From Terriglobia bacterium (lineage in GTDB: Bacteria; Acidobacteriota; Terriglobia; Acidiferrales; UBA7541), in contig OY968796.1 of the NCBI GenBank assembly GCA_963695545.1, positions 2,208,001-2,272,000 of the forward strand: a stretch of DNA of 64,000 nucleotides, given 5' to 3'. Shown here in pieces: positions 37,600 to 58,183 of this stretch. The position numbers were made by a program, and so were the translations under genes. The notes under the pieces were generated by a model. That model was not told the origin of the DNA, searched no databases, and was given only the letters and a program-made list of their open reading frames with translations. Each line of letters begins with the position of its first letter. The stretch's first letter is position 1.

Positions 37600-37699
37600 T
37601 GTAGACTCTTTCGCTGGAACTGGTGCAAAAACTCGGGGTGGTGGCCACAGCTGTTTCTTGTCGACGACCAGCTTTGACTACTGCAAGTCTGCAAAGACG

Positions 37700-38368
37700 A
37701 TGAAACCGCAACGGAATATTACTGCCCTCCGCGACCTGGTCCGGGATCGGATTCAACGCAATATCGACGTCAAGCGCGCGTTGCTGGCCGATGTCGGTTT
37801 TCAAGATCAAGTAGCACAGGTCGCGGCGCGAATTGTGAAGTCGCTTCGCGCGGGTGGCAAGGTGATCTTCTTCGGCAACGGTGGAAGCGCCGCCGATGCG
37901 CAACATCTGGCCGCGGAATTCACGGGACGCTATGTGAAGGAACGTCGGGCGCTCGCGGCGATTGCGCTCAATACGAACTCTTCCTCAATGACGTCGATCG
38001 GCAACGATTATGGATTCGATTTTGTGTTCGCGCGTCAAATCGAAGCGCTGGGCAAAGAGGGAGATGTCGCGATTGGCATTTCAACCAGCGGAAATTCGGG
38101 CAATGTGCTTCGAGCCCTCGAATCTGCAAAATCGAAATCGATGTATACGGCCGCTCTGACCGGTGCATCCGGTGGAGCGGTGAAAAATATTGCGGATTGC
38201 ACGATTTGCATTCCTTCGGAAGAGACTCCTCGAATTCAAGAGTGTCATGTGCTCGCCGGTCACCTGATCTGTGAAATTGTGGAATTACTGCTCTTCGGGT
38301 CGCCCGACGTGGAATTCGCTGAAGCTGGTGGCGCGGCGGCGCGGCGTCGGGTCTCGAATCCGAAATAA
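37700..38368 (+). CDS. gmhA: D-sedoheptulose 7-phosphate isomerase
   Basis: GNGGSAADAQHLAAE, NDYGF, ISTSGNS, RIQECH. Confidence 0.92.
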   Translation: MKPQRNITALRDLVRDRIQRNIDVKRALLADVGFQDQVAQVAARIVKSLRAGGKVIFFGNGGSAADAQHLAAEFTGRYVKERRALAAIALNTNSSSMTSIGNDYGFDFVFARQIEALGKEGDVAIGISTSGNSGNVLRALESAKSKSMYTAALTGASGGAVKNIADCTICIPSEETPRIQECHVLAGHLICEIVELLLFGSPDVEFAEAGGAAARRRVSNPK

Positions 38369-38527: not shown

Positions 38528-39157
38528 CTAGAGTGGATAGCGGCCACGTGCCCAGATGATCGAGCGATTCACCATTGAGAGCGGAAAGATAGTTGGGCGC
38601 ACGACGTCGACGAAGAGCACTACGCGATAACCCTCCGTGTCGTTCCAGACTTCGTGCTCGTTGCTATCGTCGAAGATCATGCTTTTTCCCTCCTGCCAAC
38701 AGGCCACGTCGTGTCCGACGCGAATTCTGCAATTGGCTTCGGGCTGTGGGATCAGCAGTCCAAGGTGGTAGCGCAGCACGCCTTTGTAAGGGCCGCGGTG
38801 CGGAGGTATATGCTTGTGGGGCGACAGGATCGAGAACATCGCGCTCTTCATACCCGGAATGGTATGCAGCAATCGCACGGTCTCTGGGCACCGCTCGCAG
38901 TTCTCCTTGAACTTATTGCCAAACGAATAGAAAAGGAACGTCTTCCACTGGTCTCCTTCGGTGAGAGCAGCCTGCGCCTTCGAAACATCCTGGAAGTTCG
39001 GTATGTCCTCGCGGCGCACCATCAGCGCGTCTAATTCCCTGCGGATGGTTTTCCATTCAGACTCTATCCCGGCGACCCAGGGGAAGGTGTCTGTCTCGAA
39101 GAATGTCTTGTCCCCGTCACGATAGAAAAGCACTTTTTCTACGATATCTCGGACCAT
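38528..39157 (-). CDS. Aspartyl/asparaginyl beta-hydroxylase domain protein (LpxO-like, Fe/2OG)
   Basis: AMFSIL, HIPPHRGPYKGVLRYHLGL, FDDSNEHEVWN, RVVLFVD. Confidence 0.88.
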   Translation of the reverse strand: MVRDIVEKVLFYRDGDKTFFETDTFPWVAGIESEWKTIRRELDALMVRREDIPNFQDVSKAQAALTEGDQWKTFLFYSFGNKFKENCERCPETVRLLHTIPGMKSAMFSILSPHKHIPPHRGPYKGVLRYHLGLLIPQPEANCRIRVGHDVACWQEGKSMIFDDSNEHEVWNDTEGYRVVLFVDVVRPTIFPLSMVNRSIIWARGRYPL

Positions 39158-39582
39158 ATTCTCCTCCTCACATCGGTGGCGGAACAGATTTCTCCCGGGT
39201 GGCCATGTCGGGCTCTTCTACGCGGGGGCGTGAGACAGTGTATATCACATTCTGAAGCTCTGAAACCGCGGTGGTCCAGAACTCTGACCGTTCGGCGCTC
39301 GGGGGCGGGGAGAGGCCAGAAAGGCCACCTTTCCGCAAGGGCACTGGGTGGTCGACCCGTGAACACGGTGTTAAAGGGATGTCGCTGGACCGGGACGGTA
39401 TAGTGCGGCGGGCGAACGCTTTGGCAAATCGTGGCAAGAGTTTTCACTTATTTTCGGTTAACGCCTCATCTGGGCTGTCGGCGAGCGGGTGTGGGCGACA
39501 CGCGTAGCTACTAAGCTTCTTGTTTTCAGGCACTTGGAATATTATCGCCCCAGGCCATCCTGGCGCGCTCTGGGTCGGAGTC

Positions 39583-39598
39583 TGGCAGGCGGGTTGCG
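39583..39598 (+). promoter_or_regulatory. Candidate sigma54 -24/-12 promoter
   Basis: TGGCAG-GCGGG-TTGCG (GG-N10-GC). Confidence 0.5.
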
Positions 39599-39629
39599 AG
39601 AGAGTACTGCAAGAAGGTGGCGTCTTAAT

Positions 39630-39641
39630 GGCGGTAGCCTA
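39630..39641 (+). promoter_or_regulatory. ops-like antitermination loading site
   Basis: GGCGGTAGCCTA versus RfaH ops GGCGGTAGnnTG, in the leader of the NusG-paralog gene. Confidence 0.5.
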
Positions 39642-39700
39642 CTTGGACCCCGATTCGACCGGTTCCGAGAGAAGTATTTAGAGGGAGCCACTGGGTCACG

Positions 39701-40273
39701 ATGGAACTCGAAATGGGAAGCCAGAGCTGGTTCGCGGTTCAGGTGAGGACTCGCTGGGAGGCCTCCACGGCCTTGCTGCTTTCCGGCAAGGGCTACGAAA
39801 CCCTGCTACCTACCTATAAGACTAAGAAGCGCTGGAATGGAAGGCTGAGAGAGGTCAACGCGGCGCTATTCCCGGGTTACGTGTTCTGCCAATTCGATGC
39901 TCAGAAGCGGCTACCCGTCCTAGTCACGCCGGGCGTGATTTCAGTGGTGGGCTCCGGCCGAATCCCTATTGCGGTGGCGGACACCGAAATCGCCGCGATC
40001 CAAACAGTTGTTTCGTCGGGTCTGCGCGCGGAGCCATGGCCTTACCTTGAACTGGGGCAAAGAGTTCGAATCGAGCGCGATGCGCTAGAGGGCCTGGAAG
40101 GAATCCTGATTAATTTTAAGGGCAATCATCGACTGGTGGTGTCCGTAACGCTGCTTCGGCGTTCGGTGGCTTTGGAAGTTGACCGTTCTTGTGTGAGATC
40201 TGTCGGCCCGAGTCGATCGACGGTACTTGAGCCGATTGCTTCTCGTTCCATGCTGCAAGGAGTGGTGGCCTAA
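39701..40273 (+). CDS. NusG paralog antiterminator (UpxY/RfaH-like)
   Basis: WFAVQVR, LFPGYVFC, C-terminal KOW (GQRVRI...LEGIL). Confidence 0.9.
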   Translation: MELEMGSQSWFAVQVRTRWEASTALLLSGKGYETLLPTYKTKKRWNGRLREVNAALFPGYVFCQFDAQKRLPVLVTPGVISVVGSGRIPIAVADTEIAAIQTVVSSGLRAEPWPYLELGQRVRIERDALEGLEGILINFKGNHRLVVSVTLLRRSVALEVDRSCVRSVGPSRSTVLEPIASRSMLQGVVA

Positions 40274-40395
40274 GTCGACGTTCGATCTTGGGAATTGGTT
40301 AGAGTTGGCCGTCGCGGCGAAGATTCTTTTCTGGTCCGAAATCTTCGGCGACTTAGAAAGGTCTGAGCGTGGGCACTGCAATTGGAAATGGGAAT

Positions 40396-41568
40396 ATGGT
40401 AATTCCTCCGCACGGAAATCAAGGCTCGCAAAAGGGAAGAGGCCGCAAGGCATTGTCGCGCTTTGGCCACTTGCCGGCTGGGTCGAGAATCGTTCTTAAC
40501 GAAGACGCCTTCCACGCAATGCTGACGATCGAACGCCGGCGAGCGGAACGTTCCGGCAAGCCATTCGTTCTGATGGTCATCGACTCCCAAGCGGTGCACA
40601 AGAACGGGAACGCGGCAAGCTTCGCTGCGCAACTCACTTCTGTCGTTTCCAACGCAACGCGCGAGACGGATTTCGTAGGCTGGTACGCCGAGGGCAGTAG
40701 TCTCGGCGTGATATTTACGGAAATTAATCTAGAGGGAACGAACTCCGTAGCCGACGTCCTGCAGTCCAAGATCACCGCGGCACTGCACGATCATCTCGAT
40801 CAGAAGATCGCAGCTAGCCTCGTGGTCACCGTTCACCTATTTCCGGAAAGCTGGGATAAGGGTTTCCCAGATCGAGTGGCAGACGTCAAACTTTATCCGG
40901 ATCTTTCCCAGAAGGCGTCAAAAAAGCGGCTTGGGATGATTGTGAAGCGCGCGATTGATATTATGGGCGGCGCGCTGTTGCTGATCGCGCTCGCGCCGGT
41001 TCTGGGGATCGTCGCACTGGCAATCAAGCTTTCCTCCAAGGGGCCCGTTCTATTTAGTCAGGACCGGCTAGGTCAATTCGGAGAAGGCTTCAAGTGCCTG
41101 AAGTTTCGTACGATGTATACAAACAACGATCCAAAGCTCCATCGTGAATTCGTACAGCAATTCATCGCCGGAAAGATGGAGAACGAGAACAAGGATGAGA
41201 CCGGGCCCACGGTTTATAAGATTACAAATGATCCACGCGTGACCTCGGTTGGAAGATTTCTCCGCAAGACGAGTCTGGATGAGTTTCCCCAATTCTGGAA
41301 TGTCTTGCGAGGCGAAATGTCTCTGGTGGGCCCCCGCCCACCGGTTCCATACGAATTCGAAGTGTACGATTTCTGGCATCGGCGTAGAGTCCTCGAAGTG
41401 AAGCCAGGCGTCACAGGGTTGTGGCAAGTGAGTGGCCGGAGCAGCACATCTTTCGATGATATGGTCCGGCTTGACTTGCAGTATTCCCGAAGCTGGTCGC
41501 TGTGGCTCGATGTAAAGATCCTACTGGCTACTCCGCGCGCGGTTTTCACTGGTGACGGTGCTTTCTAA
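40396..41568 (+). CDS. Priming sugar transferase (bacterial sugar transferase domain)
   Basis: [59 protein letters not shown]. Confidence 0.92.
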
Positions 41569-41771
41569 TGTTCGGGGAAGATGTTTCTTCGTCAATACCG
41601 ACTCTCCGAAACCGTTTAGCTGATTTACCCTGTTGAACCTTTCCCACATGCCGTTCGGGCGCGGTGTTCTGAGGTCGCCTAGGACGGTCCAATCGCTCCC
41701 AAGTCGAGTCGCCTCGATCCAGGCGCCAAGATTTAATCATTCAGTCTTTCTCCGCAGAGTAAAGAGGGAAC

Positions 41772-42773
41772 ATGATTCGAGTAGGTGTCATCGGTTATGG
41801 ATACTGGGGCCCGAATATCGTTCGGAACCTTCACGGATTGGACTCAACGCGGGCCGAGATGGTTTGCGACAAGAGCCCTGCCGCGCTGGCGCGCGCGCGG
41901 AGGGCCTATCCAGGTATTCGAACAGTTTCCGATCCAGGGGAGATACTGCGTTCTCCGGACATCGACGCGGTCGCGGTGGTCACGCCTGTTTGGACTCACT
42001 ACGAGCTGGCAAAACAAGCGCTTGAGAACGGGAAGCACGTTTTTATTGAGAAGCCGTTCACATCCACCTCCGCTCAAGGCGAAGAGCTGATCGAACTCGC
42101 GGCGCGGAAGAAGCTTACGATCATGGTGGACCATACATTCTTATTCACCGGAGCAGTGCGCAAGATCCGCGAGTTAACCGAGAGCGGGTCTCTCGGCGAT
42201 CTGTACTACTACGATTCGCTGCGCATAAACCTTGGCCTGTTTCAGCATGACGTTAGCGTGATATGGGACTTGGCACCGCACGATCTGTCCATCATGGACC
42301 ACATCATTAAGGGTCAGCCTGAGGCCGTGGTGGCCACGGGCGAGAGGCACTTGAACGGCGTGGAAGACGTCGCGTTCATGACGATCTATTTCCCGCGAAA
42401 TGTGATTGCGCACATCAACGTCAACTGGCTCTCGCCGGTGAAGATCCGGACCACGCTCATCGGCGGCCAAAAGAAAATGCTCGTTTGGAACGACCTGGTA
42501 GCCGATGAAAAAATACGCGTCTACGATAGGGGCGTTACCATTGATTCGGGAGAAGGCATTCGGGATCTTCTTGTGAGCTATCGCACGGGCGACATGTGGG
42601 CGCCGCAGGTGGAACAATTGGAGGCGTTGCACGTGGAGATGGACTATTTTGCGGACTGCATTATGAACAACAAGACCCCCTTCAACGACGGTCACGCCGG
42701 GCTGCGCGTCGTGCGAATGCTGGAAGCGGCGGAAGCTTCGATTCAAAAAAGAGGCGAATTGGTCCGCCTGTGA
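41772..42773 (+). CDS. Gfo/Idh/MocA oxidoreductase (NDP-sugar dehydrogenase-like)
   Basis: VIGYGYWG, HVFIEKP, WDLAPHD. Confidence 0.9.
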   Translation: MIRVGVIGYGYWGPNIVRNLHGLDSTRAEMVCDKSPAALARARRAYPGIRTVSDPGEILRSPDIDAVAVVTPVWTHYELAKQALENGKHVFIEKPFTSTSAQGEELIELAARKKLTIMVDHTFLFTGAVRKIRELTESGSLGDLYYYDSLRINLGLFQHDVSVIWDLAPHDLSIMDHIIKGQPEAVVATGERHLNGVEDVAFMTIYFPRNVIAHINVNWLSPVKIRTTLIGGQKKMLVWNDLVADEKIRVYDRGVTIDSGEGIRDLLVSYRTGDMWAPQVEQLEALHVEMDYFADCIMNNKTPFNDGHAGLRVVRMLEAAEASIQKRGELVRL

Positions 42774-42838
42774 GCGATTAGTTCCGCGTCGCGACGAATG
42801 CAACTCTTGCCAGAGATGCTAAGCTGTTCGATGTCTAG
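42770..42838 (+). pseudogene. Decayed 5' remnant of a hexapeptide acetyltransferase
   Basis: GTGA-coupled start reads VSD*FRVATNATLARDAKLF, like the N-termini of WbpD/WlbB-type genes that usually occupy this position. Confidence 0.4.
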
Positions 42839-42939
42839 CGCCGAATTTAAGATCTAACCTTGGGGTGTGGCGAGTTCGTCGGTGCGGAGTATGAAGACCG
42901 CACCGAGGGCGTGCCCCTCTCAGAGGTGGTTGTTGAGTC

Positions 42940-43935
42940 TTGAATGGGAAGGGTGGGAAGCCTTTGCAGCAAAAGATCGATGATTGCCGGGCGGGGACCG
43001 CTGTGGCCGACGATCTTTCATGGGCGCTGTTCCGCAAGATGCTCCAGGTGCGTCGCGTGGAAGAGTCTCTACTTCAGCTGTTTTCTCGGGGCCTGCTATT
43101 CGGCACCGTGCATACGTGTATTGGCCAGGAGGTCTGCGGCGTCGGAGTGACCCAAGCCCTTAACCCCGCCAAGGACGTTTTGTGGTCGAATCATCGAGGG
43201 CACGGTCATTACCTGTCGTTCACGGGAGACCTGCAAGGACTCTTGTCCGAAATCCTGGGAAAGGCCGGTGGGGCCTGCGGCGGAGTCGGAGGCAGTCAGC
43301 ACCTGCATTATCGCAACGTATATACGAACGGTATTCTGGGAGGAACGGTCCCTTGCGCGGTTGGCTGCGCATTCGCCGAAAAATTCAAGGGCAACGATGC
43401 CGTCGTGGTGGTTTTTCTCGGCGATGGCGCTCTCGGGGAGGGCATTGTTTACGAGGGCATGAATATTGCATCACTTTGGGGCTTGCCGGTTCTCTTCGTT
43501 CTGGAGGACAACGGATACGCGCAAAGCACTCCTCGGTCATACGAGCACTCGGGCGACATCGAAACGCGGGCAAGAACTTTTGCGATTCCTACGACCATCC
43601 TGAAGGCCGACAACGCAATCGATGTGTGGCGCGCGACGGGCAAAATCGTCAGTGAAATGAGACTCGATCTGCGCCCCCAGATGCTGGTGCTGCAGACGTA
43701 CCGATTGGCGCCGCACAGTAAGGGCGATGATAACCGCGATGAAAAGGAGATCGCCGCCCACTGGGCCGCGGATCCGCTCGCGCGCCATCGTGAAATACTA
43801 AGGGCCGAAAACCCGGAGCGCCTCGAGCAGATTGAAAAGGAAATCGGCGACGAAGTTCAGCGTTGCATAAATGTCGCGATCGACGATCAACCCACTGACC
43901 TCGCCCGATTCCTTGGACACATAGACAAACCATGA
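42940..43935 (+). CDS. TPP-dependent dehydrogenase E1 alpha-like subunit
   Basis: HTCIGQE, NHRGHGH, GDG...EDN TPP motif, TYRLAPHS. Confidence 0.92.
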   Translation: MNGKGGKPLQQKIDDCRAGTAVADDLSWALFRKMLQVRRVEESLLQLFSRGLLFGTVHTCIGQEVCGVGVTQALNPAKDVLWSNHRGHGHYLSFTGDLQGLLSEILGKAGGACGGVGGSQHLHYRNVYTNGILGGTVPCAVGCAFAEKFKGNDAVVVVFLGDGALGEGIVYEGMNIASLWGLPVLFVLEDNGYAQSTPRSYEHSGDIETRARTFAIPTTILKADNAIDVWRATGKIVSEMRLDLRPQMLVLQTYRLAPHSKGDDNRDEKEIAAHWAADPLARHREILRAENPERLEQIEKEIGDEVQRCINVAIDDQPTDLARFLGHIDKP

Positions 43936-44930
43936 CCTATCTGGAAGAGTTGAATACCGGCCTTCGACAGGTTCTCTCAACCACAGAGGACGTCGTCCTA
44001 TTCGGTGAAGATTTGCTGGATCCGTACGGCGGCGCGTTTAAGGTGACTCGTGGTTTGCAGCACGATTTTCCGCGGCGAGTGCTGACGACACCGATAAGTG
44101 AGGCGGCGCTCACCGGCATGGCCACGGGTATGGCGCTGCGAGGCCTTCGCCCGGTTTTGGAGATCATGTTTGGCGATTTTATGGGACTTTGCATGGATCA
44201 AATTTTGAACCATGCCTCGAAGTTCCGAATGATGTACAACGACCAGGTCAAGATTCCAATCACGATCCGGACGCCCATGGGCGGCGGGCGAGGCTATGGA
44301 CCCACGCACAGTCAATGCATCGAAAAACTTTTCCTGGGCATTCCGGACATACGGATTGTCGCACCGTCTATATTTTGTGAAGTCGCGCAACTTTTGAAGC
44401 AGGCGATATTCGATGATCGGCCTGTTTTGTTTATCGAGCATAAACTTTTGTATTCAGCTGAATTGCTGACTTCCTCGGTACCTGGACTTTTGATCGAGAA
44501 TAAGCTCGGTGGCTACGGCTATCCGGTTTCGGTCATCCGCAACTACACTTCCGGCAGTCCTGACGTTACGCTGATCACTTACGGAGGCGCGTCGCGCTTC
44601 GTGCCGACGATCTTCCAGCACCTCGCAGAAGAGGAAGTCCGGGCCGTCGCCTGCATACCTGCTCTGATCAAACCGCCGCCTTTCCAATTGATAGAAGAGC
44701 TCGTAGCTGAGTCGGGCCGTGCGGTCATCGTCGAAGAGGGAATCGTGCAATGGGGCTGGGGCGCGGAGTTGGCAGCGCGTCTGCATGATTCTTTGTTTGG
44801 CAAACTGACCAAACCGGTGCGCAGAATTGGTGCGTTGGACACGATTATTCCTGCGTCGAAGACTCTCGAGCAGGCGGTCCTTCCCTCAAGCCAAGACATT
44901 GAGAAGGCGCTTCTGGAGATGGTCGAGTGA
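43932..44930 (+). CDS. Dehydrogenase E1 beta-like subunit
   Basis: FGEDL, TPISEA, EIMFGDF, GPTHSQ, FIEHK; ATGA overlap. Confidence 0.92.
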   Translation: MTYLEELNTGLRQVLSTTEDVVLFGEDLLDPYGGAFKVTRGLQHDFPRRVLTTPISEAALTGMATGMALRGLRPVLEIMFGDFMGLCMDQILNHASKFRMMYNDQVKIPITIRTPMGGGRGYGPTHSQCIEKLFLGIPDIRIVAPSIFCEVAQLLKQAIFDDRPVLFIEHKLLYSAELLTSSVPGLLIENKLGGYGYPVSVIRNYTSGSPDVTLITYGGASRFVPTIFQHLAEEEVRAVACIPALIKPPPFQLIEELVAESGRAVIVEEGIVQWGWGAELAARLHDSLFGKLTKPVRRIGALDTIIPASKTLEQAVLPSSQDIEKALLEMVE

Positions 44931-46072
44931 CACATTTCATTGAAGCGCCCATGGTCAATGTGAATGACGACACCGTGATCCTGACCCGCTGGGTCAAACC
45001 GGAGGGGAGTTTGGTGCACAAAGGCGAGCCGATCGCCGTCATCGAAACGACCAAAGCCACCTTCGATCTGGAGTCCGAACATGCTGGTTACCTTCGTGCT
45101 TTTGCCGCGGACGGTGCAACAGTAGCGGTGGGTGAAATCCTCGGGGCCATTTGTGAGACCGCTGATGAACGGCCTGAGAAACCAGTTGCTCCCGCACCGG
45201 TGATCGCCGCGGGCGGTGCGGCGTCGCGAAAGGTCACGAAAAAGGCGGAGATTGCCGCTCGCAAAGCGGGTCTCGACCTTGAGAAATTGATCGCGGAAAT
45301 CCCCGGAACCGGAGCCGTGACGGAGGCGGAGATTCGAGATTATTTAGCCCATCGTGGATCTCGCACGGCCGCTGCGCCACGTTTGGACGCGCGGGATTTG
45401 GTCGATGATGCGTATCCCCAAAATCGGCAGCAGCGCCTCCTACTCATTGGAGGCGGATTGGGCGCGGTGCAGCTTTTAGATTCCCTAACGCGCGTGGAGA
45501 ATCAACGGGCGACCGCCATCGTAGACGACAACGCCGATCTACATGGCAAGACCGTGATGGGCGTTCCGGTTCTCGGCGGACAGAATGACATCGAAGGACT
45601 CTTCGCGCGAAAGCTGTTTGACGCTGCCGTGGTGTCGGTCAGCACCAGCGTTGCCTTTCGACAGCGCATGTTTGAGAACCTCGCGCAGTTGAAAATTCCG
45701 ATGGCGAACGTCATCGATCCTAGCGCACGGGTGCAAAGAAACGCAGCACTCGGCACAGGGAACGTGATCCTGGCATATTGCCACGTCGGTTCATGTGCGG
45801 TGATCGGAAACGGAAACTTTCTAAGCCCCTTCGTTGACGTTGAGCATCATTGCGCTGTTGGAGATTTTTGTACTTTCGGACCGGGAGTCATGATGAGCTC
45901 TCTGGTGAATATCGGTAACGGCGTGAAATTTGGGACTGGAGTTTTTATCGAACCCAAGATAACGATCGGATCGAACAGTATCATCGGCTCAGGCGCGATA
46001 CTCGTCGGCAACATTCCAGAGAATTCCATTGTGAAAACAACAATGGGCTACACAGTTCGTCCTCGCGGATGA
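44927..46072 (+). CDS. Lipoyl domain + subunit-binding domain + NeuD/PglD-type sugar acyltransferase fusion
   Basis: ETTKA lipoyl-Lys motif; KAEIAARKAGLDL...GTG.VTEAEI PSBD; LLIGGG...IVDD...GVPVLG Rossmann; hexapeptide repeats with VEHHC. Confidence 0.85.
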   Translation: MTHFIEAPMVNVNDDTVILTRWVKPEGSLVHKGEPIAVIETTKATFDLESEHAGYLRAFAADGATVAVGEILGAICETADERPEKPVAPAPVIAAGGAASRKVTKKAEIAARKAGLDLEKLIAEIPGTGAVTEAEIRDYLAHRGSRTAAAPRLDARDLVDDAYPQNRQQRLLLIGGGLGAVQLLDSLTRVENQRATAIVDDNADLHGKTVMGVPVLGGQNDIEGLFARKLFDAAVVSVSTSVAFRQRMFENLAQLKIPMANVIDPSARVQRNAALGTGNVILAYCHVGSCAVIGNGNFLSPFVDVEHHCAVGDFCTFGPGVMMSSLVNIGNGVKFGTGVFIEPKITIGSNSIIGSGAILVGNIPENSIVKTTMGYTVRPRG

Positions 46073-46239
46073 GACGACATCCCGAATTTCGCGAGACGTC
46101 AATCGTCGAGAACGCCCTATTTATCAGTAGCTCGACCATCTAGAAACTGAATCCGCACTCAGCAATTCACTTCTGAAATTCACATTACGAAGCACGATCC
46201 GAATCATCAACGGTTCTTACCCCCACCAAAGGTGAACCT

Positions 46240-47445
46240 ATGACACAGAGCGGGAAAATACCGTTTGTCGATCTTGTGACGCTCCACCGTGAGCTTGAGG
46301 CGGAGCTGCTCGATGTGTGCAAGCGAGTGATCGAGACGGCTGGCTTTATCGGAGGTCCCGAGGTAGAGGGCTTCGAGAAGGAATTTGCGCAGTATTGCGA
46401 TACGAAGTATTGCGTCGGCGTGAATAGCGGGACCGACGCGCTTCGCTTCGCGTTGGTGGCGGCGGGAATTCAGTCCGGCGAGATCGTGCTCACCGTGCCG
46501 CACACCTTCATCGCCACGACCGAGGCTATCTCGCAGGCGGGCGCGCGGCCGGATTTTGTCGACATCGACGAACGCACCTTCACGATGGATCCTGACAGGC
46601 TGCGAGCGTACTTAGAAACACGATGCGTGTTGGACCAACGCACGGGGCGCTACGTCCATAAGACTCTGGGGCGACCCGTTGCGGCGGTCGTTCCGGTTCA
46701 TCTTTACGGCCAGATGGCCGATATGGACCCGATTCTCGAGCTCGCGGCGCGCTACAAGTTGGTCGTGATCGAGGACGCCTGCCAGGCACACGGAGCGGAA
46801 TACTTTTCCAAGAAACAGAATCGCTGGTTGAAAGCCGGATCGATCGGGCGTGCGGCCGCGTTCAGTTTTTATCCCGGGAAAAATCTGGGCGCGTGTGGTG
46901 AAGGTGGCGCGGTGACCACGAACGATCAGGAGCTGGCGCGACATTGCGTCATGCTGCGCGATCACGGGTCGATCAAGAAGTATTACCACGACATCGAAGG
47001 TTACAACGGGCGACTTGATTCCATTCAAGCGGGAATGCTGCGCGTGAAATTGCGGCATCTATCGAAATGGAACGAGCAGCGCCGTGAGTGCGCGGGGCGA
47101 TACAACGAGCTTCTGGCGCAACTGCCAGGCAGCGTCAAACTGCCTTATGAACCTTCTTATTCGAGGTCGGTCTATCATCTGTACGTGGTGTCTGCGTCGA
47201 ATCGAGTCGGACTCCAGGATCATTTGAATGCAGCTGGAATCGGCACCGGCATCCATTATCCGATCCCGCTTCATCTTCAGAATGCGTATCGCGAGCTCAA
47301 GTACAAACTTGGAGATTTCCCTATCTCTGAGCAGGCCGCTGCACAGGTACTCTCGTTACCGATGTACGCCGGTCTGCGCGCTGACCAGCAAAGCCAAGTT
47401 GCGGAAACGATGATGGAATTCGCTTCAGTTCATTCGGCTCAATAA
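46240..47445 (+). CDS. DegT/DnrJ/EryC1/StrS sugar aminotransferase
   Basis: NSGTDAL, VHLYGQ, EDACQAHG, SFYPGKNLGA, NGRLD. Confidence 0.95.
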   Translation: MTQSGKIPFVDLVTLHRELEAELLDVCKRVIETAGFIGGPEVEGFEKEFAQYCDTKYCVGVNSGTDALRFALVAAGIQSGEIVLTVPHTFIATTEAISQAGARPDFVDIDERTFTMDPDRLRAYLETRCVLDQRTGRYVHKTLGRPVAAVVPVHLYGQMADMDPILELAARYKLVVIEDACQAHGAEYFSKKQNRWLKAGSIGRAAAFSFYPGKNLGACGEGGAVTTNDQELARHCVMLRDHGSIKKYYHDIEGYNGRLDSIQAGMLRVKLRHLSKWNEQRRECAGRYNELLAQLPGSVKLPYEPSYSRSVYHLYVVSASNRVGLQDHLNAAGIGTGIHYPIPLHLQNAYRELKYKLGDFPISEQAAAQVLSLPMYAGLRADQQSQVAETMMEFASVHSAQ

Positions 47446-47561
47446 TTCGTACCCGCCTGCGTCTTAGCTTGGTCCGATCTACCAACGCATTCAGCATCAT
47501 CTAGAGCAATCGTAGCCGAGTCATTGCACTCGGCGATGCAGTTCCACACTTGAAGGAGCAA

Positions 47562-48722
47562 ATGTCCGCGATCCCGTCCATGGCAGGCGCTTCGATCGGT
47601 GCCGGAACCTCGGCGCCGGCGACTCTTTCTGACCCGGTGCGGCTTGGCGAGCTGACTGCCTTGGCCATCGCTGGGCTTCGGCCGATGCTTGATCCCGCCA
47701 CTCGCCTGTTCTGCCACCGATTGGTGCGCACGCGAAGCGGCTTGGTTCGCGAAGGCGTGTCGTTGCGGTACAGTGCGATGACACTTTTGGGTTTGCACCG
47801 TTTGAAATCTTGCGGAAAACAGTTGCCTGTCGATATCCAGCCGATTCTGGATGCATTGCTCGAGAATGTCGGTTGGATGGATAACATCGGCGACGTTGGT
47901 CTTGTGCTCTGGTTGCTCGCTGAAGCGGCTCCGGACCGGCTGAACAAATTTCATGAGGCGATGAATCTTGAACACGCTCTAGAGAGACACCCGGGCGCGC
48001 AAGAAGGGCGAACGATGGAACTCGCGTGGTTTCTTACCGGGCTATCGTGCGCTGCGATCGCTCGGCGTGCGGAACTGTCGGGCGTGAGCGATTTGGCCGC
48101 GGAAACGTATCGACGTCTCGAGGAGAACCTCGGGGAGAGCGGGATTTTCGGCCACCAGTCCGGACACGCCACGTTCGGCGGATTGTTGCGTGGGAGGATC
48201 GGAAGTTTCGCTGACCAGACCTATGCGATCTATGCGATCTCGCGCTTCGTCGCAGCGTTCGAAGAGGATGAGCCGCTAAGCGCGGCGCGCAATTGTGCGG
48301 AGGCGATCTGCGGAGCGCAAGGTCCTCTGGGACAATGGTGGTGGCACTATGATTCCGCTTCGGGAGAGGCCGTTCGGGGCTATCCGGTCTTTTCCGTTCA
48401 CCAGGATGCCATGGCTCCTATGGCGCTTCTCTCGCTTGGAAAGTTGCTTGGGGAGGATTTTTCGGAATTCGTCGCGAAGGGCATTCGGTGGGTTGGCGGT
48501 CAGAACGAACTTGGAGTTGATCTGCGCGACGGGCGAGCAGGCGTCATCTGGCGCGGAATTCAACTAACGGCAAAGTTCCAGATGTACCTCGATGATTTTC
48601 TCGGGATGATCCGAAATCGAGCCGACGTCGGCGCGCACCGCGAGATCGCGGTTCTACGCGAGTGTCGACCGTACGAATTGGGGTGGTTGTTGTATGCATT
48701 TGCGGAAGAAGCGGCGCAATAG
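47562..48722 (+). CDS. Hypothetical protein, probably alpha/alpha-barrel
   Basis: GAAGGAG RBS; helical; GQWWWHYD, YPVFSVHQDAMAP, ECRPYELGW. Confidence 0.7.
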   Translation: MSAIPSMAGASIGAGTSAPATLSDPVRLGELTALAIAGLRPMLDPATRLFCHRLVRTRSGLVREGVSLRYSAMTLLGLHRLKSCGKQLPVDIQPILDALLENVGWMDNIGDVGLVLWLLAEAAPDRLNKFHEAMNLEHALERHPGAQEGRTMELAWFLTGLSCAAIARRAELSGVSDLAAETYRRLEENLGESGIFGHQSGHATFGGLLRGRIGSFADQTYAIYAISRFVAAFEEDEPLSAARNCAEAICGAQGPLGQWWWHYDSASGEAVRGYPVFSVHQDAMAPMALLSLGKLLGEDFSEFVAKGIRWVGGQNELGVDLRDGRAGVIWRGIQLTAKFQMYLDDFLGMIRNRADVGAHREIAVLRECRPYELGWLLYAFAEEAAQ

Positions 48723-56600: not shown

Positions 56601-58183
56601 AGCCCTTCGATCGCGACGGCAATTTCCGTTCCGTCGTAAGTTCGGATGGGCTGCGGCGGGCGGCTGTCCGAGGCGCCGGGGCGACCATTGGTGCTCAGGC
56701 GGGTAGCTTCGTTGTGCAGATCGGATCAATCGTCGATCCTGGCGCGGTTACTTAGCCCGGCTGATTTCGGGATCGTGACTATGGTCACGACGTTTAGCCT
56801 CCTGTTTCGCAGCTTCGGTTTGAATGGATTCACAGAATTGATCATGCAGCGCGAAGAGATTTCGCGTTCTCTGGCGAGCAATCTCTTCTGGGTCAATCTG
56901 GGCATCAGCACGATTCTCACTTTTGGGTTCGCCAGCGCGGGTCCGTTGCTGGCGCTTTTCTATCATAACTCGGCCGTAGCTCGAGTGACAGAGGGCATGT
57001 CGCTGACGATTGGGCTGAGCTGCCTGGGGTGGATACACTTGGGGCTTTTGCAGCGCGCGATGCAATTCAGGATTGCCGCAATCATTAGTTTCGTTGGGCA
57101 GATCGTTTTGGTGATCGTCTCGATCGTCCTGGCGATGGCGGGATGGCACTATTGGGCATTGGTTTGGGGAATTGTGGCGCAGTCGGCGGTGGGATCAGCG
57201 GGCGCGTGGTTGATGTGCCGATGGGTACCGAGTTGGCCGGCTCGCGCCTCGGGCACCCGTTCAGGGCTGAAGTTCGCGACCACGTTTATGCGCATTTCGC
57301 TTTCAGCTACTTGACGCGCAATACGGACAACCTCCTGGTTGGCTGGCGCTATGGCGCTCAGTCGCTTGGATTTTATAAAAAGGCCTATGACTTGTTCGTT
57401 CTTCCGGAAACCCAGTTGTTGTCACCGGTTTCCGCCGTGGTCGTGAGTACGCTTAGCCGCGTCGTCGGGGATCGCGAGCAATTTAAACGCTATTTTCTGC
57501 GGGCGATATCGGTTTTGGCGCTCGTGGGAATGGGAATCGGAGCGGATTTTGCTTTAGTGGGAAAAGACATCATTCGTTTTCTTCTGGGGCCTGGCTGGGA
57601 AGCGGCTGGCCGAATCTTCGCCTTATTCGGTCCGGGAATCGGAGTGATGTTGCTTTATAACACGCACGGGTGGATTCATCTTTCGATCGGCCGCCCCGAG
57701 CGGTGGTTTCGCTGGGGTTTGATGGAGTTTGTGTGCACCGCGAGTCTTTTTTTGCTGACTTTGCGCTGGGGCCCTTCCGGAATCGCCTTGGCTTGGACGA
57801 TTTCGTTTTTCATTCTGATGTTTCCTGGCTTCTGGTATGCCGGAAAGCCGATTGGAATGGGCATGGGGCCGGTATTTGGCGTCATCTGGAAATTTTTTGC
57901 GGCATCGGCTGCTGGCTGCCTGTGGCACTTTTCTATCGTGATGGCTACGCCGCGTTTTGCGGCGACGCCAGGGGCCGCGGCGCTCTTCTGAGGCTGATTT
58001 TGGTTTCCCTCGTATTTTTCGCATTGTATCTCATCGGAGTGATTGCGCTTCACCGGGGGCTTAAGCCCCTTAAGGAGACGGTCTCGCTTGCTTCACGACC
58101 TGCTGCCCCAACGTAGAGTCGGTGGCGTGAATTCCGCTGCAGCAGTCGATGCGAATGTTGTCGCGCCCATAGCGGAAATCTGA
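56597..58183 (+). CDS. Wzx flippase (WzxC-like), with ~4 apparent frameshifts
   Basis: MKPFD...LRRAAVRG, LARLLSPADFG, RNTDNLLVG..G...LGFYKKAY; frame changes near 56735, 57281, 57985 and 58088. Confidence 0.8.

Follow-up and report, generated by a model that had tools for sequence, protein, structure and literature searches.

Lipoyl swinging-arm machines have so far had three outputs: acylation of coenzyme A (CoA), glycine cleavage and sulfur oxidation. QncN/QncL/QncM of quinocarcin and naphthyridinomycin biosynthesis reportedly comprise a thiamine diphosphate (ThDP) enzyme and a lipoyl carrier that deliver a glycolyl unit, a use of such enzymes beyond central metabolism. There, and with AcoC-type E2 enzymes, the acyl group is said to go to acyl carrier protein (ACP) or CoA, with no β-helix sugar transferase. 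Here we describe a three-gene cassette in a 64,000-nucleotide stretch of DNA, called the window below, from a Terriglobia bacterium of the Acidobacteriota (GenBank assembly GCA_963695545.1, contig OY968796.1). The window is C1:2208001-2272000 of a 4.16-Mb single-contig genome. The cassette encodes the α and β subunits of a 2-oxoacid dehydrogenase-type E1 and a fusion protein that joins a lipoyl domain to a predicted nucleotide-sugar N-acyltransferase. This triad, we propose, is probably a 2-oxoacid dehydrogenase complex in cut-down form: a nucleotide amino sugar would replace CoA as the final acceptor, and a housekeeping lipoamide dehydrogenase (E3) would recycle the arm.

A full-text literature search, outside which most subscription journals lie, returned no description of a lipoyl-β-helix fusion or of lipoyl-dependent sugar acylation. 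In the part of PMC4875605 available, which contains both "lipoyl" and "NeuD", "lipoyl" refers to fatty acylation. The triad and the parts of the fusion are as follows (window coordinates).

42940..43935, + strand: E1α, ThDP-binding, of the heterotetrameric type of 2-oxoacid decarboxylase/dehydrogenase (PF00676, E1_dh, 175 bits)
43932..44930, + strand: E1β (PF02779, Transket_pyr, and PF02780, Transketolase_C)
44927..46072, + strand: fusion protein of 381 aa, with a lipoyl domain, a peripheral-subunit-binding domain (PSBD), a PglD_N-like Rossmann domain and a left-handed β-helix N-acyltransferase
44927..45166, + strand: lipoyl domain of the fusion, residues 1-80 (PF00364, Biotin_lipoyl, 39.5 bits over residues 5-75)
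45233..45358, + strand: divergent PSBD of the fusion, residues 103-144 (family profile and structural model)
45422..46069, + strand: nucleotide-sugar N-acyltransferase half of the fusion, PerB/PglB/PglD type, residues 166-381 (Foldseek and profile)

Read directly from the sequence, the E1α/E1β junction is a 4-base overlap, ATGA (43932-43935), and the E1β/fusion junction another, GTGA (44927-44930). The N-terminus of the fusion at 44927 agrees with the N-termini of the aligned homologues.

Domain architecture of the fusion protein

The N-terminal part of the fusion matched E2 lipoyl domains in profile searches (up to 4e-23), and its best NCBIfam match was the acetoin-dehydrogenase E2 model. The putative lipoyl-lysine, K43 (codon 45053-45055), lies in the motif E40-T41-T42-K43-A44. 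E40, T41 and K43 are invariant in all 41 aligned relatives, whose identity goes down to 35%, and so are H307 and H308 in the transferase half, T104, A107 and A111 in the PSBD, and R170, G177 and D200 in the nucleotide-binding domain; D201 is nearly so. The AlphaFold2 model of the monomer, built with the 41 relatives, has a mean predicted local distance difference test score (pLDDT) of 89. It begins with a β-barrel (residues 1-80, pLDDT 83-96), which is followed by a three-helix module, a Rossmann-like domain and a left-handed β-helix. The PSBD helices (105-113, 118-124 and 133-144) have a pLDDT of about 84, and the module is flanked by low-confidence, flexible linkers at residues 90-99 and 145-151.

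We cut the linker segment from 45 family members, compared the resulting profile with the PDB, and scored each member singly against PF02817. Among 19 PDB matches at E ≤ 0.01, 18 were PSBDs of E2 proteins, from pyruvate dehydrogenase (PDH), branched-chain 2-oxoacid dehydrogenase (BCKDH) and 2-oxoglutarate dehydrogenase (OGDH), with 2eq9_C as the best (3.7e-6). PF02817 was matched singly by 18 of the 45 members (best 6.9e-5), the window copy not being among them. Pfam scans of the fusion gave no match to PF00198 (2-oxoacid_dh), the chloramphenicol acetyltransferase-like (CAT-like) core. Since the linker profile retrieves E2 PSBDs, the fusion is, judged by its domains, an E2-like chain that starts with lipoyl domain and PSBD and then has a PglD-type transferase in place of the CAT-like core.

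Foldseek placed the transferase half on PerB (4ea7/4eaa) with a template modelling (TM) score by target of 0.88 and a root-mean-square deviation of 1.4 Å. The TM score by target was 0.84-0.90 across PerB, Neisseria PglB-ATD and Campylobacter PglD. The profile match to PerB reached 2e-31, Hexapep (PF00132) was also matched, and LpxA/LpxD were among the weaker fold and sequence matches. The PglD_N-like nucleotide-binding domain aligns with the nucleotide-sugar-binding half of PerB. H307 (45845-45847) and H308 (45848-45850) lie within the motif VEHHC, and H307 falls on H141 of PerB, the general-base position, which is replaced in the entries 4eaa (H141N) and 4eab (H141A). A complex prediction for three β-helix halves with the lipoyl domain, in which the lipoyl partner alone was scored, returned a score of 0.00 (mark, 0.32) and counts neither for nor against a contact.

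With the β-helix half as query, matches above ~39% identity were nearly all fused proteins of 365-380 aa, which form a clade of their own, and clear stand-alone enzymes appeared only at ~30% identity. At the catalytic site the fused clade has E-H-H, versus H-E or H-D in two stand-alone relatives (P0181 and P0182), which also have other residues at the positions of N279, S324, E342-P343 and S355. S324 precedes the residue aligned with Gly159 of PerB, which we take to be the oxyanion-hole glycine. These clade-specific changes around the predicted thioester site would fit a different acyl donor and do not prove one.

Short matches at 40-75% identity that looked stand-alone (P0121, P0125, P0133, P0166, P0173 and P0178) were rejected as free enzymes and read as truncated gene calls, because most of them come from contigs of 0.9-3.1 kb and show the residues typical of the fused clade. 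In P0279 (865 aa) the transferase occupies residues 6-200, and three further stretches are matched. An Actinomycetota cluster of 232 members in the ESM Atlas, ~520 aa in length, combines Biotin_lipoyl with Hexapep.

The preliminary description of this DNA, drawn from the letters and their open reading frames (ORFs), had reported translationally coupled E1α, E1β and a third gene, the ETTKA and VEHHC motifs, and a Rossmann plus left-handed β-helix transferase in place of the E2 core, the whole lying between a Gfo/Idh/MocA dehydrogenase and a DegT aminotransferase. The two overlaps, the invariance of K43, H307 and H308, the missing PF00198 match together with the PerB/PglD-type fold, and the flanking ORFs and their domains all agree with it. 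Its PSBD-like segment stands in part: the family profile retrieves E2 PSBDs, and the window copy alone is not significant in Pfam.

The E1 pair and its linkage to the fusion

By both NCBIfam and nearest solved structures, the E1 is closest to pyruvate-type E1; human PDH E1α (144 bits) is nearest to the α subunit, and 1ik6 and 1w85_B to the β subunit. G161-D162-G163, N191 and H259-S260-K261 of E1α are invariant in 53 of 53 loci, and E57, E77 and H126 of E1β in 56 of 56. H259 aligns with the His before the regulatory phospho-Ser of human PDH E1α ("YHGHSMSD"), a residue required when lipoamide is reductively acetylated, and the E1 appears competent for lipoyl acylation. Where human PDH E1α has Met, Met, Met, Tyr and Phe, the window E1α has Q120, Q195, K261, H85 and H90; all 53 loci share the first four of these, and 49 share H90. 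At low confidence, these polar or basic substitutions, together with the presence of a dedicated E1, hint at a 2-oxoacid more polar than pyruvate; for plain acetylation a dedicated E1 would be needless, because acetyl-CoA is abundant.

Contigs from four soil-metagenome runs, all of one study, hold the operon. One of them, from a run not flagged as a likely source, covers 44497-46806 without mismatch or gap, a span that includes the E1β/fusion overlap, the whole fusion and the start of the DegT gene. Contigs of three of the four runs carry G instead of C at 45256, a synonymous change at the third base of the Ala110 codon (GCN) of the fusion, and closely related strains therefore coexist in those soils.

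A word-indexed search found 173 relatives, and both PF00364 and PF00132 were present in 112 of 120 among the matches listed. The exhaustive profile search gave 1,100 representative clusters (50% identity) at E ≤ 1e-30; within the best 150 clusters, 126 match as one stretch and start within the first 14 profile positions. At least eight ESM Atlas clusters, of 51-339 members and with automatic names only, have the lipoyl-β-helix architecture. Searching by architecture and by neighbourhood had been suggested at the outset; with ~1,100 clusters, the fusion is far beyond chance.

For the neighbourhoods we surveyed one genome per GTDB species, and 60 loci were confirmed from 80 pattern matches. By record titles, they fall under at least 12 phylum-level labels, including Acidobacteriota, Chloroflexota, Armatimonadota, Planctomycetota, Bacteroidota and Chlorobiota/Ignavibacteria; further labels are Verrucomicrobiota, Actinomycetota, Pseudomonadota, Desulfuromonadaceae, Desulfotomaculaceae, Bdellovibrionota and Eisenbacteria. 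Strains in culture are represented too, for example Chryseobacterium hispalense DSM 25574, Pelagicoccus mobilis KCTC 13126, Acanthopleuribacter pedis KCTC 12899 and Actinoplanes cyaneus NBRC 14990. Among 401 genomes sampled from the host's phylum, only the window's own genome has a full-length fusion, and the one other match covers the β-helix half alone. The module is rare and patchy. The locus L059 was rejected as a genuine split form, being a frameshift-garbled copy.

E1α and E1β lie directly upstream of the fusion, on the same strand, in 52 of the 53 testable loci, where at least 2.1 kb of sequence precedes the fusion gene. Most gaps between E1β and the fusion are between −28 and +30 bp. 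Pairwise distances over 51 loci gave r values of 0.94 for fusion versus E1β, 0.91 for fusion versus E1α and 0.93 for E1α versus E1β, and over one set of 24 loci 0.84 for fusion versus DegT and 0.94 for fusion versus E1β. The fusion tracks E1 about as closely as the E1 subunits track each other, and more closely than it tracks DegT; shared ancestry inflates all of these correlations, which lessens what they can say for the linkage. No E3, lipoate ligase or E2 core was clustered with the triad in at least 10 of the 60 loci. A Gfo homologue (at least 35% identity) is present in 17 of the 60. The surroundings change between groups, as the following gene orders illustrate.

Acidobacteriaceae: Bac_transf, Gfo, E1, E1, fusion, DegT
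Chryseobacterium: UDP-sugar dehydrogenase (UDP, uridine diphosphate), DAO, DegT, E1, E1, fusion, Gfo, Wzx
Chitinophaga group: two FdtA-type 3,4-ketoisomerase genes, E1, E1, fusion, methyltransferase, DegT
Roseibium/Chromatiales: RmlC-like, C-methyltransferase, DegT, E1, E1, fusion, TylF-like methyltransferase

The triad stays constant across these different amino-sugar contexts, and we therefore regard it as a portable acylation module of which E1 and the fusion are the constant part.

The polysaccharide locus and the host genome

The genes around the triad in the window are listed below. By ORF listing and domain scans, they form with it a co-directional run on the + strand in the order NusG-like, Bac_transf, Gfo/Idh/MocA, E1α, E1β, fusion, DegT.

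39701..40273, + strand: NusG-like gene of the operon-specific antiterminator type, heading the polysaccharide locus (PF02357, 59.4 bits)
40369..41568, + strand: Bac_transf initiating sugar-phosphate transferase with a long N-terminal extension (PF02397, 222 bits over residues 193-393)
41772..42773, + strand: Gfo/Idh/MocA NAD-dependent sugar dehydrogenase (PF01408, 95.7 bits)
46240..47445, + strand: DegT/DnrJ/EryC1 sugar aminotransferase dependent on pyridoxal phosphate (PF01041, 367 bits)

The best NCBIfam model for the Gfo enzyme is NF040723, UDP-GlcNAc 3-dehydrogenase (152 bits, below the cut-off of 450), and its nearest solved proteins are uncharacterised; it is probably a nucleotide-sugar 3-dehydrogenase. 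Solved relatives of the DegT protein are 7b0d (356 bits), QdtB (323), 2oga (300) and WbpE (227). We take 2oga to be DesV, and QdtB, WbpE and DesV to be C3-aminotransferases; by sequence similarity, the DegT protein is nearest to this group. A NusG-like homologue is also close to the triad in three other loci, and in the Acidobacteriaceae loci L002-L005 a conserved Bac_transf gene precedes the cassette.

On the 3' side of DegT follow genes for a 390-aa protein without annotation, a GT2, an epimerase/dehydratase-family protein, a second Gfo-type protein and an AsnB-like amidotransferase, and farther 3' genes for a Wzy_C protein, a Wzx-type flippase, an FkbM methyltransferase and a GT4. The locus is a surface-polysaccharide locus. 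Its G+C content is 0.53-0.58 in window positions 38001-64000, against mostly 0.58-0.64 in 1-38000; glycan loci that vary and are exchanged horizontally usually show such lowered G+C. The scanned ORFs of the locus in the window gave no further acyltransferase family. A promoter and terminator scan of 39000-48000 gave one promoter-like and seven terminator-like sites, fewer than in shuffled sequences.

The 390-aa protein (47550-48722, + strand), between DegT and GT2, matched no Pfam family and has a 46%-identical homologue 3' of the cassette in L002. The Wzx-type flippase (Polysacc_synt_3) is encoded by two overlapping ORFs, 56646-57314 and 57143-57991 (+ strand), covering positions 1-189 and 190-290 of the profile, apparently because of a frameshift; the gene may be a true pseudogene, or the sequence may contain an error. 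Immediately before the locus lie an Asp/Asn β-hydroxylase-family gene (38528-39157, − strand, 190 bits) and a SIS-domain (GmhA-like) gene (37658-38368, + strand).

Elsewhere in the genome, a lipoamide dehydrogenase (Lpd) scored above its cut-off (521 bits, C1:1014607), next to a housekeeping E1α at C1:1016865 and the sole canonical E2 (C1:1019043-1020389; PSBD 62 bits, PF00198 277 bits). The E2's PF00198 match (C1:1019715) is the only one in the genome and lies 1.2 Mb from the cassette, beside its own E1 and Lpd. The window E1 is therefore an extra paralogue, and its α subunit is the most divergent of the four full-length E1_dh paralogues in the genome. We rejected the cassette E1 as the housekeeping PDH, given the separate Lpd-E1-E2 cluster at C1:1.014-1.020 Mb. 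Two further E1 genes, at C1:3549961-3550848 (− strand) and C1:2589007-2589954 (+ strand), have no lipoyl-protein gene nearby among the PF00364 matches; one of the two lies inside a 735-aa ORF, possibly an α-β fusion.

LipA and one LplA/LipB-family gene are also present in the genome, so that E3 and lipoylation would be available in trans. Lpd was above cut-off in all five other hosts tested, including Desulfuromonadaceae, Desulfotomaculaceae and Anaerolineae metagenome-assembled genomes (MAGs), and also in 11 of 14 controls, which tells against giving its presence much weight: Lpd is nearly universal, and this is a weak test.

Proposed acyl transfer, its alternatives and known systems

On the proposed route, the E1 α2β2 tetramer would dock on the PSBD of the fusion and decarboxylate a small 2-oxoacid on ThDP. 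It would then reductively acylate a lipoyl group carried by K43. On its flexible linkers the S-acyl-dihydrolipoyl arm would reach the donor groove between subunits of a predicted β-helix homotrimer of the fusion itself, the form typical of PglD-type enzymes, by analogy with acyl-ACP and LpxA/LpxD. There H307 would deprotonate the C3 amine of a sugar made by the Gfo and DegT enzymes, and the amine would attack the thioester to give an N-acyl sugar. Finally, the housekeeping lipoamide dehydrogenase would re-oxidise the dihydrolipoyl arm. The domain swap bears on the central step: the transferase stands where the lipoyl arm normally unloads, and direct lipoyl-to-sugar transfer without CoA is what we infer. 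The acceptor is likely a nucleotide-linked 3-amino sugar, such as UDP-GlcNAc3N or a relative, because DegT is nearest to C3-aminotransferases and the best model of Gfo is a UDP-GlcNAc 3-dehydrogenase. Acetyl from pyruvate would be the default acyl group.

Several observations weigh against this proposal. The window's own linker segment had no Pfam E3_binding match even at E 10. TIGR03570 (NeuD/PglB/VioB), aligned over residues 171-370, scored 142 bits, under its cut-off of 160.8. Both E1 subunits are below the cut-offs of the PDH E1 models TIGR03182 and NF006667, with 221.8 bits vs 393.85 (TIGR03182) for E1α and 193.9 vs 321 for E1β. In L012, the exception to the linkage, the fusion gene has no E1 beside it and lies amid genes for esterases and molybdopterin enzymes on a contig of 9.9 kb; its E1 may be elsewhere in that MAG. 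DegT lies within 7 kb in only 30 of the 60 loci. Eight Chloroflexota loci have an aldo-keto reductase directly upstream of E1α and no DegT within 7 kb, so that in some loci the acceptor may be something other than an amino sugar supplied by neighbouring genes. A Fumble-type gene (type II pantothenate-kinase-like) is upstream in six Chloroflexota loci, five of them among these eight; the loci with either or both genes are L007, L008, L010, L011, L018-L021 and L026. Perhaps the module acts on a different acceptor in these Chloroflexota; alternatively, the aldo-keto reductase and Fumble-type genes may supply the oxoacid.

The preliminary description had called the cassette a candidate self-contained sugar N-acylation machine. 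The anatomy, context and conservation fit a sugar N-acylation machine: the triad takes the acetyltransferase position of a dehydrogenase/aminotransferase amino-sugar pathway and has neither an E2 core nor a CoA-linked enzyme with it. "Self-contained" is too strong, because a reduced lipoyl arm needs E3 and the domain needs a lipoylating enzyme, and both are encoded elsewhere in the genome; as had been stated, the window itself holds no lipoamide-dehydrogenase match.

The best of the alternatives, which we nevertheless think unlikely, is that the β-helix half is an ordinary acyl-CoA-dependent N-acetyltransferase and that the lipoyl-PSBD arm and E1 are otherwise employed, for example in making acetyl-CoA locally from acetyl-lipoyl through the housekeeping E2, or in tethering or regulation. 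The fold speaks for this, being almost superimposable on CoA-using PerB, PglB and PglD (TM about 0.88) with the catalytic His kept, and we found no feature of the β-helix that excludes CoA binding, which is also a point against direct transfer. However, it leaves the obligate fusion, the invariant lipoyl Lys and the obligate E1 neighbours unexplained. No E2 core recurs in 10 or more of the 60 loci, the single housekeeping E2 has its own E1, and the catalytic-site residues of the fused clade are altered relative to the stand-alone enzymes.

Somewhat less probable still is that the β-helix acts as an E2 substitute, passing the acyl group to a thiol carrier (CoA or ACP) or to a non-sugar acceptor. 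Non-canonical E2 catalytic domains do exist, for instance of the AcoC type. The Chloroflexota loci that have no nearby aminotransferase, the presence of DegT in only half of the loci, and the acetoin-dehydrogenase E2 model as the lipoyl part's best match all favour such a role. Yet R170, G177 and D200 never vary in the conserved PglD_N-like domain, which corresponds to the sugar-nucleotide-binding half of PerB, and the module occupies the acetyltransferase slot of several amino-sugar pathways.

We give little credence to the idea that the E1 pair works like Plm8/Plm9 or AviB1/AviB2, adding a two-carbon branch from pyruvate to the Gfo keto-sugar, while the fusion merely N-acetylates. PDH-like E1α/β pairs in deoxysugar clusters have been proposed to attach two-carbon branches (PMC4802897, in the part available), and a keto-sugar intermediate is on hand here. 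In the same part of PMC4802897, though, "lipoyl" occurs 0 times and no lipoyl protein belongs to those systems. In the present family the lipoyl-PSBD arm is fused and invariant, the lipoamide-acylation His of E1 is invariant, and the DegT aminotransferase itself requires the keto group.

An inactive or artefactual cassette (misassembly or pseudogene) is effectively refuted by the intact overlapping ORFs, the strong conservation of catalytic residues up to invariance, the 52/53 linkage, the 1,100 clusters, and the independent contig that crosses the fusion without mismatch, which also removes the assembly artefact named earlier as a possible undoing of the fusion.

Within the preferred reading of the triad as a cut-down complex acylating a nucleotide amino sugar, a more far-reaching version is conceivable, and we put it forward tentatively. 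The triad might represent a new class of 2-oxoacid dehydrogenase with tethered S-acyl-dihydrolipoamide as the donor, whose polar E1 pocket might select an oxoacid other than pyruvate. Surface glycans in more than 12 phyla might then bear non-acetyl N-acyl groups (e.g. glycolyl, carboxy- or hydroxy-acyl) formed with no CoA thioester involved.

If direct transfer is true, CoA-independent N-acylation of nucleotide sugars would be a fourth output of lipoyl swinging-arm machines, and the fusion would be the first of the β-helix sugar acyltransferases to receive its acyl group from a lipoyl carrier. Direct transfer would account for the attachment of acyl groups for which bacteria have no pool of CoA thioesters, and it would offer a portable three-gene module for glycan engineering. 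At present, annotation gives the family no other name than "sialic acid O-acetyltransferase NeuD family" or "biotin/lipoyl-containing protein" and calls its E1 pyruvate dehydrogenase; such labels mislead metabolic reconstruction in soil Acidobacteriota, Chloroflexota, Bacteroidota and other groups.

Compared with PDH/BCKDH-type complexes, the triad has the same E1α/E1β with all catalytic residues, the same lipoyl E-T-x-K-A lysine, a PSBD and flexible linkers, and presumably the same reliance on E3 and lipoylation enzymes. It differs in having a PglD-type transferase for the PF00198 core, a predicted sugar-amine acceptor and no E3 nearby, and in an E1 that falls below the PDH equivalog cut-offs and has five polar or basic E1α positions.

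With PerB, PglD, Neisseria PglB-ATD, VioB and WeeI, the transferase half shares the two-domain fold, the position of the catalytic His and the genomic slot after a sugar aminotransferase. Those enzymes, however, are stand-alone proteins of ~200 aa that use acetyl-CoA, whereas the present clade is fused, E1-linked and E-H-H at the catalytic site. The predicted scheme of dehydrogenase, C3-aminotransferase and β-helix N-acyltransferase resembles that of the WbpB/WbpE/WbpD (WlbA/WlbC/WlbB) UDP-2,3-diacetamido route; here E1 and the lipoyl fusion would stand in place of the acetyl-CoA-dependent WbpD step, and Gfo is only distantly related to the characterised 3-dehydrogenases.

LpxA/LpxD are likewise β-helix acyltransferases that take a thioester from a carrier protein (acyl-ACP) and acylate a UDP-sugar. 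Their carrier is ACP-phosphopantetheine, they are unfused and they transfer long acyl chains, in contrast to the lipoyl-lysine here. Plm8/Plm9 and AviB1/AviB2, as far as the available part of PMC4802897 describes them, also recruit an E1α/β pair to nucleotide-sugar tailoring, but no lipoyl carrier takes part there and the bond made on the keto sugar is C-C, whereas the present pair is combined with a lipoyl carrier and an N-acyltransferase.

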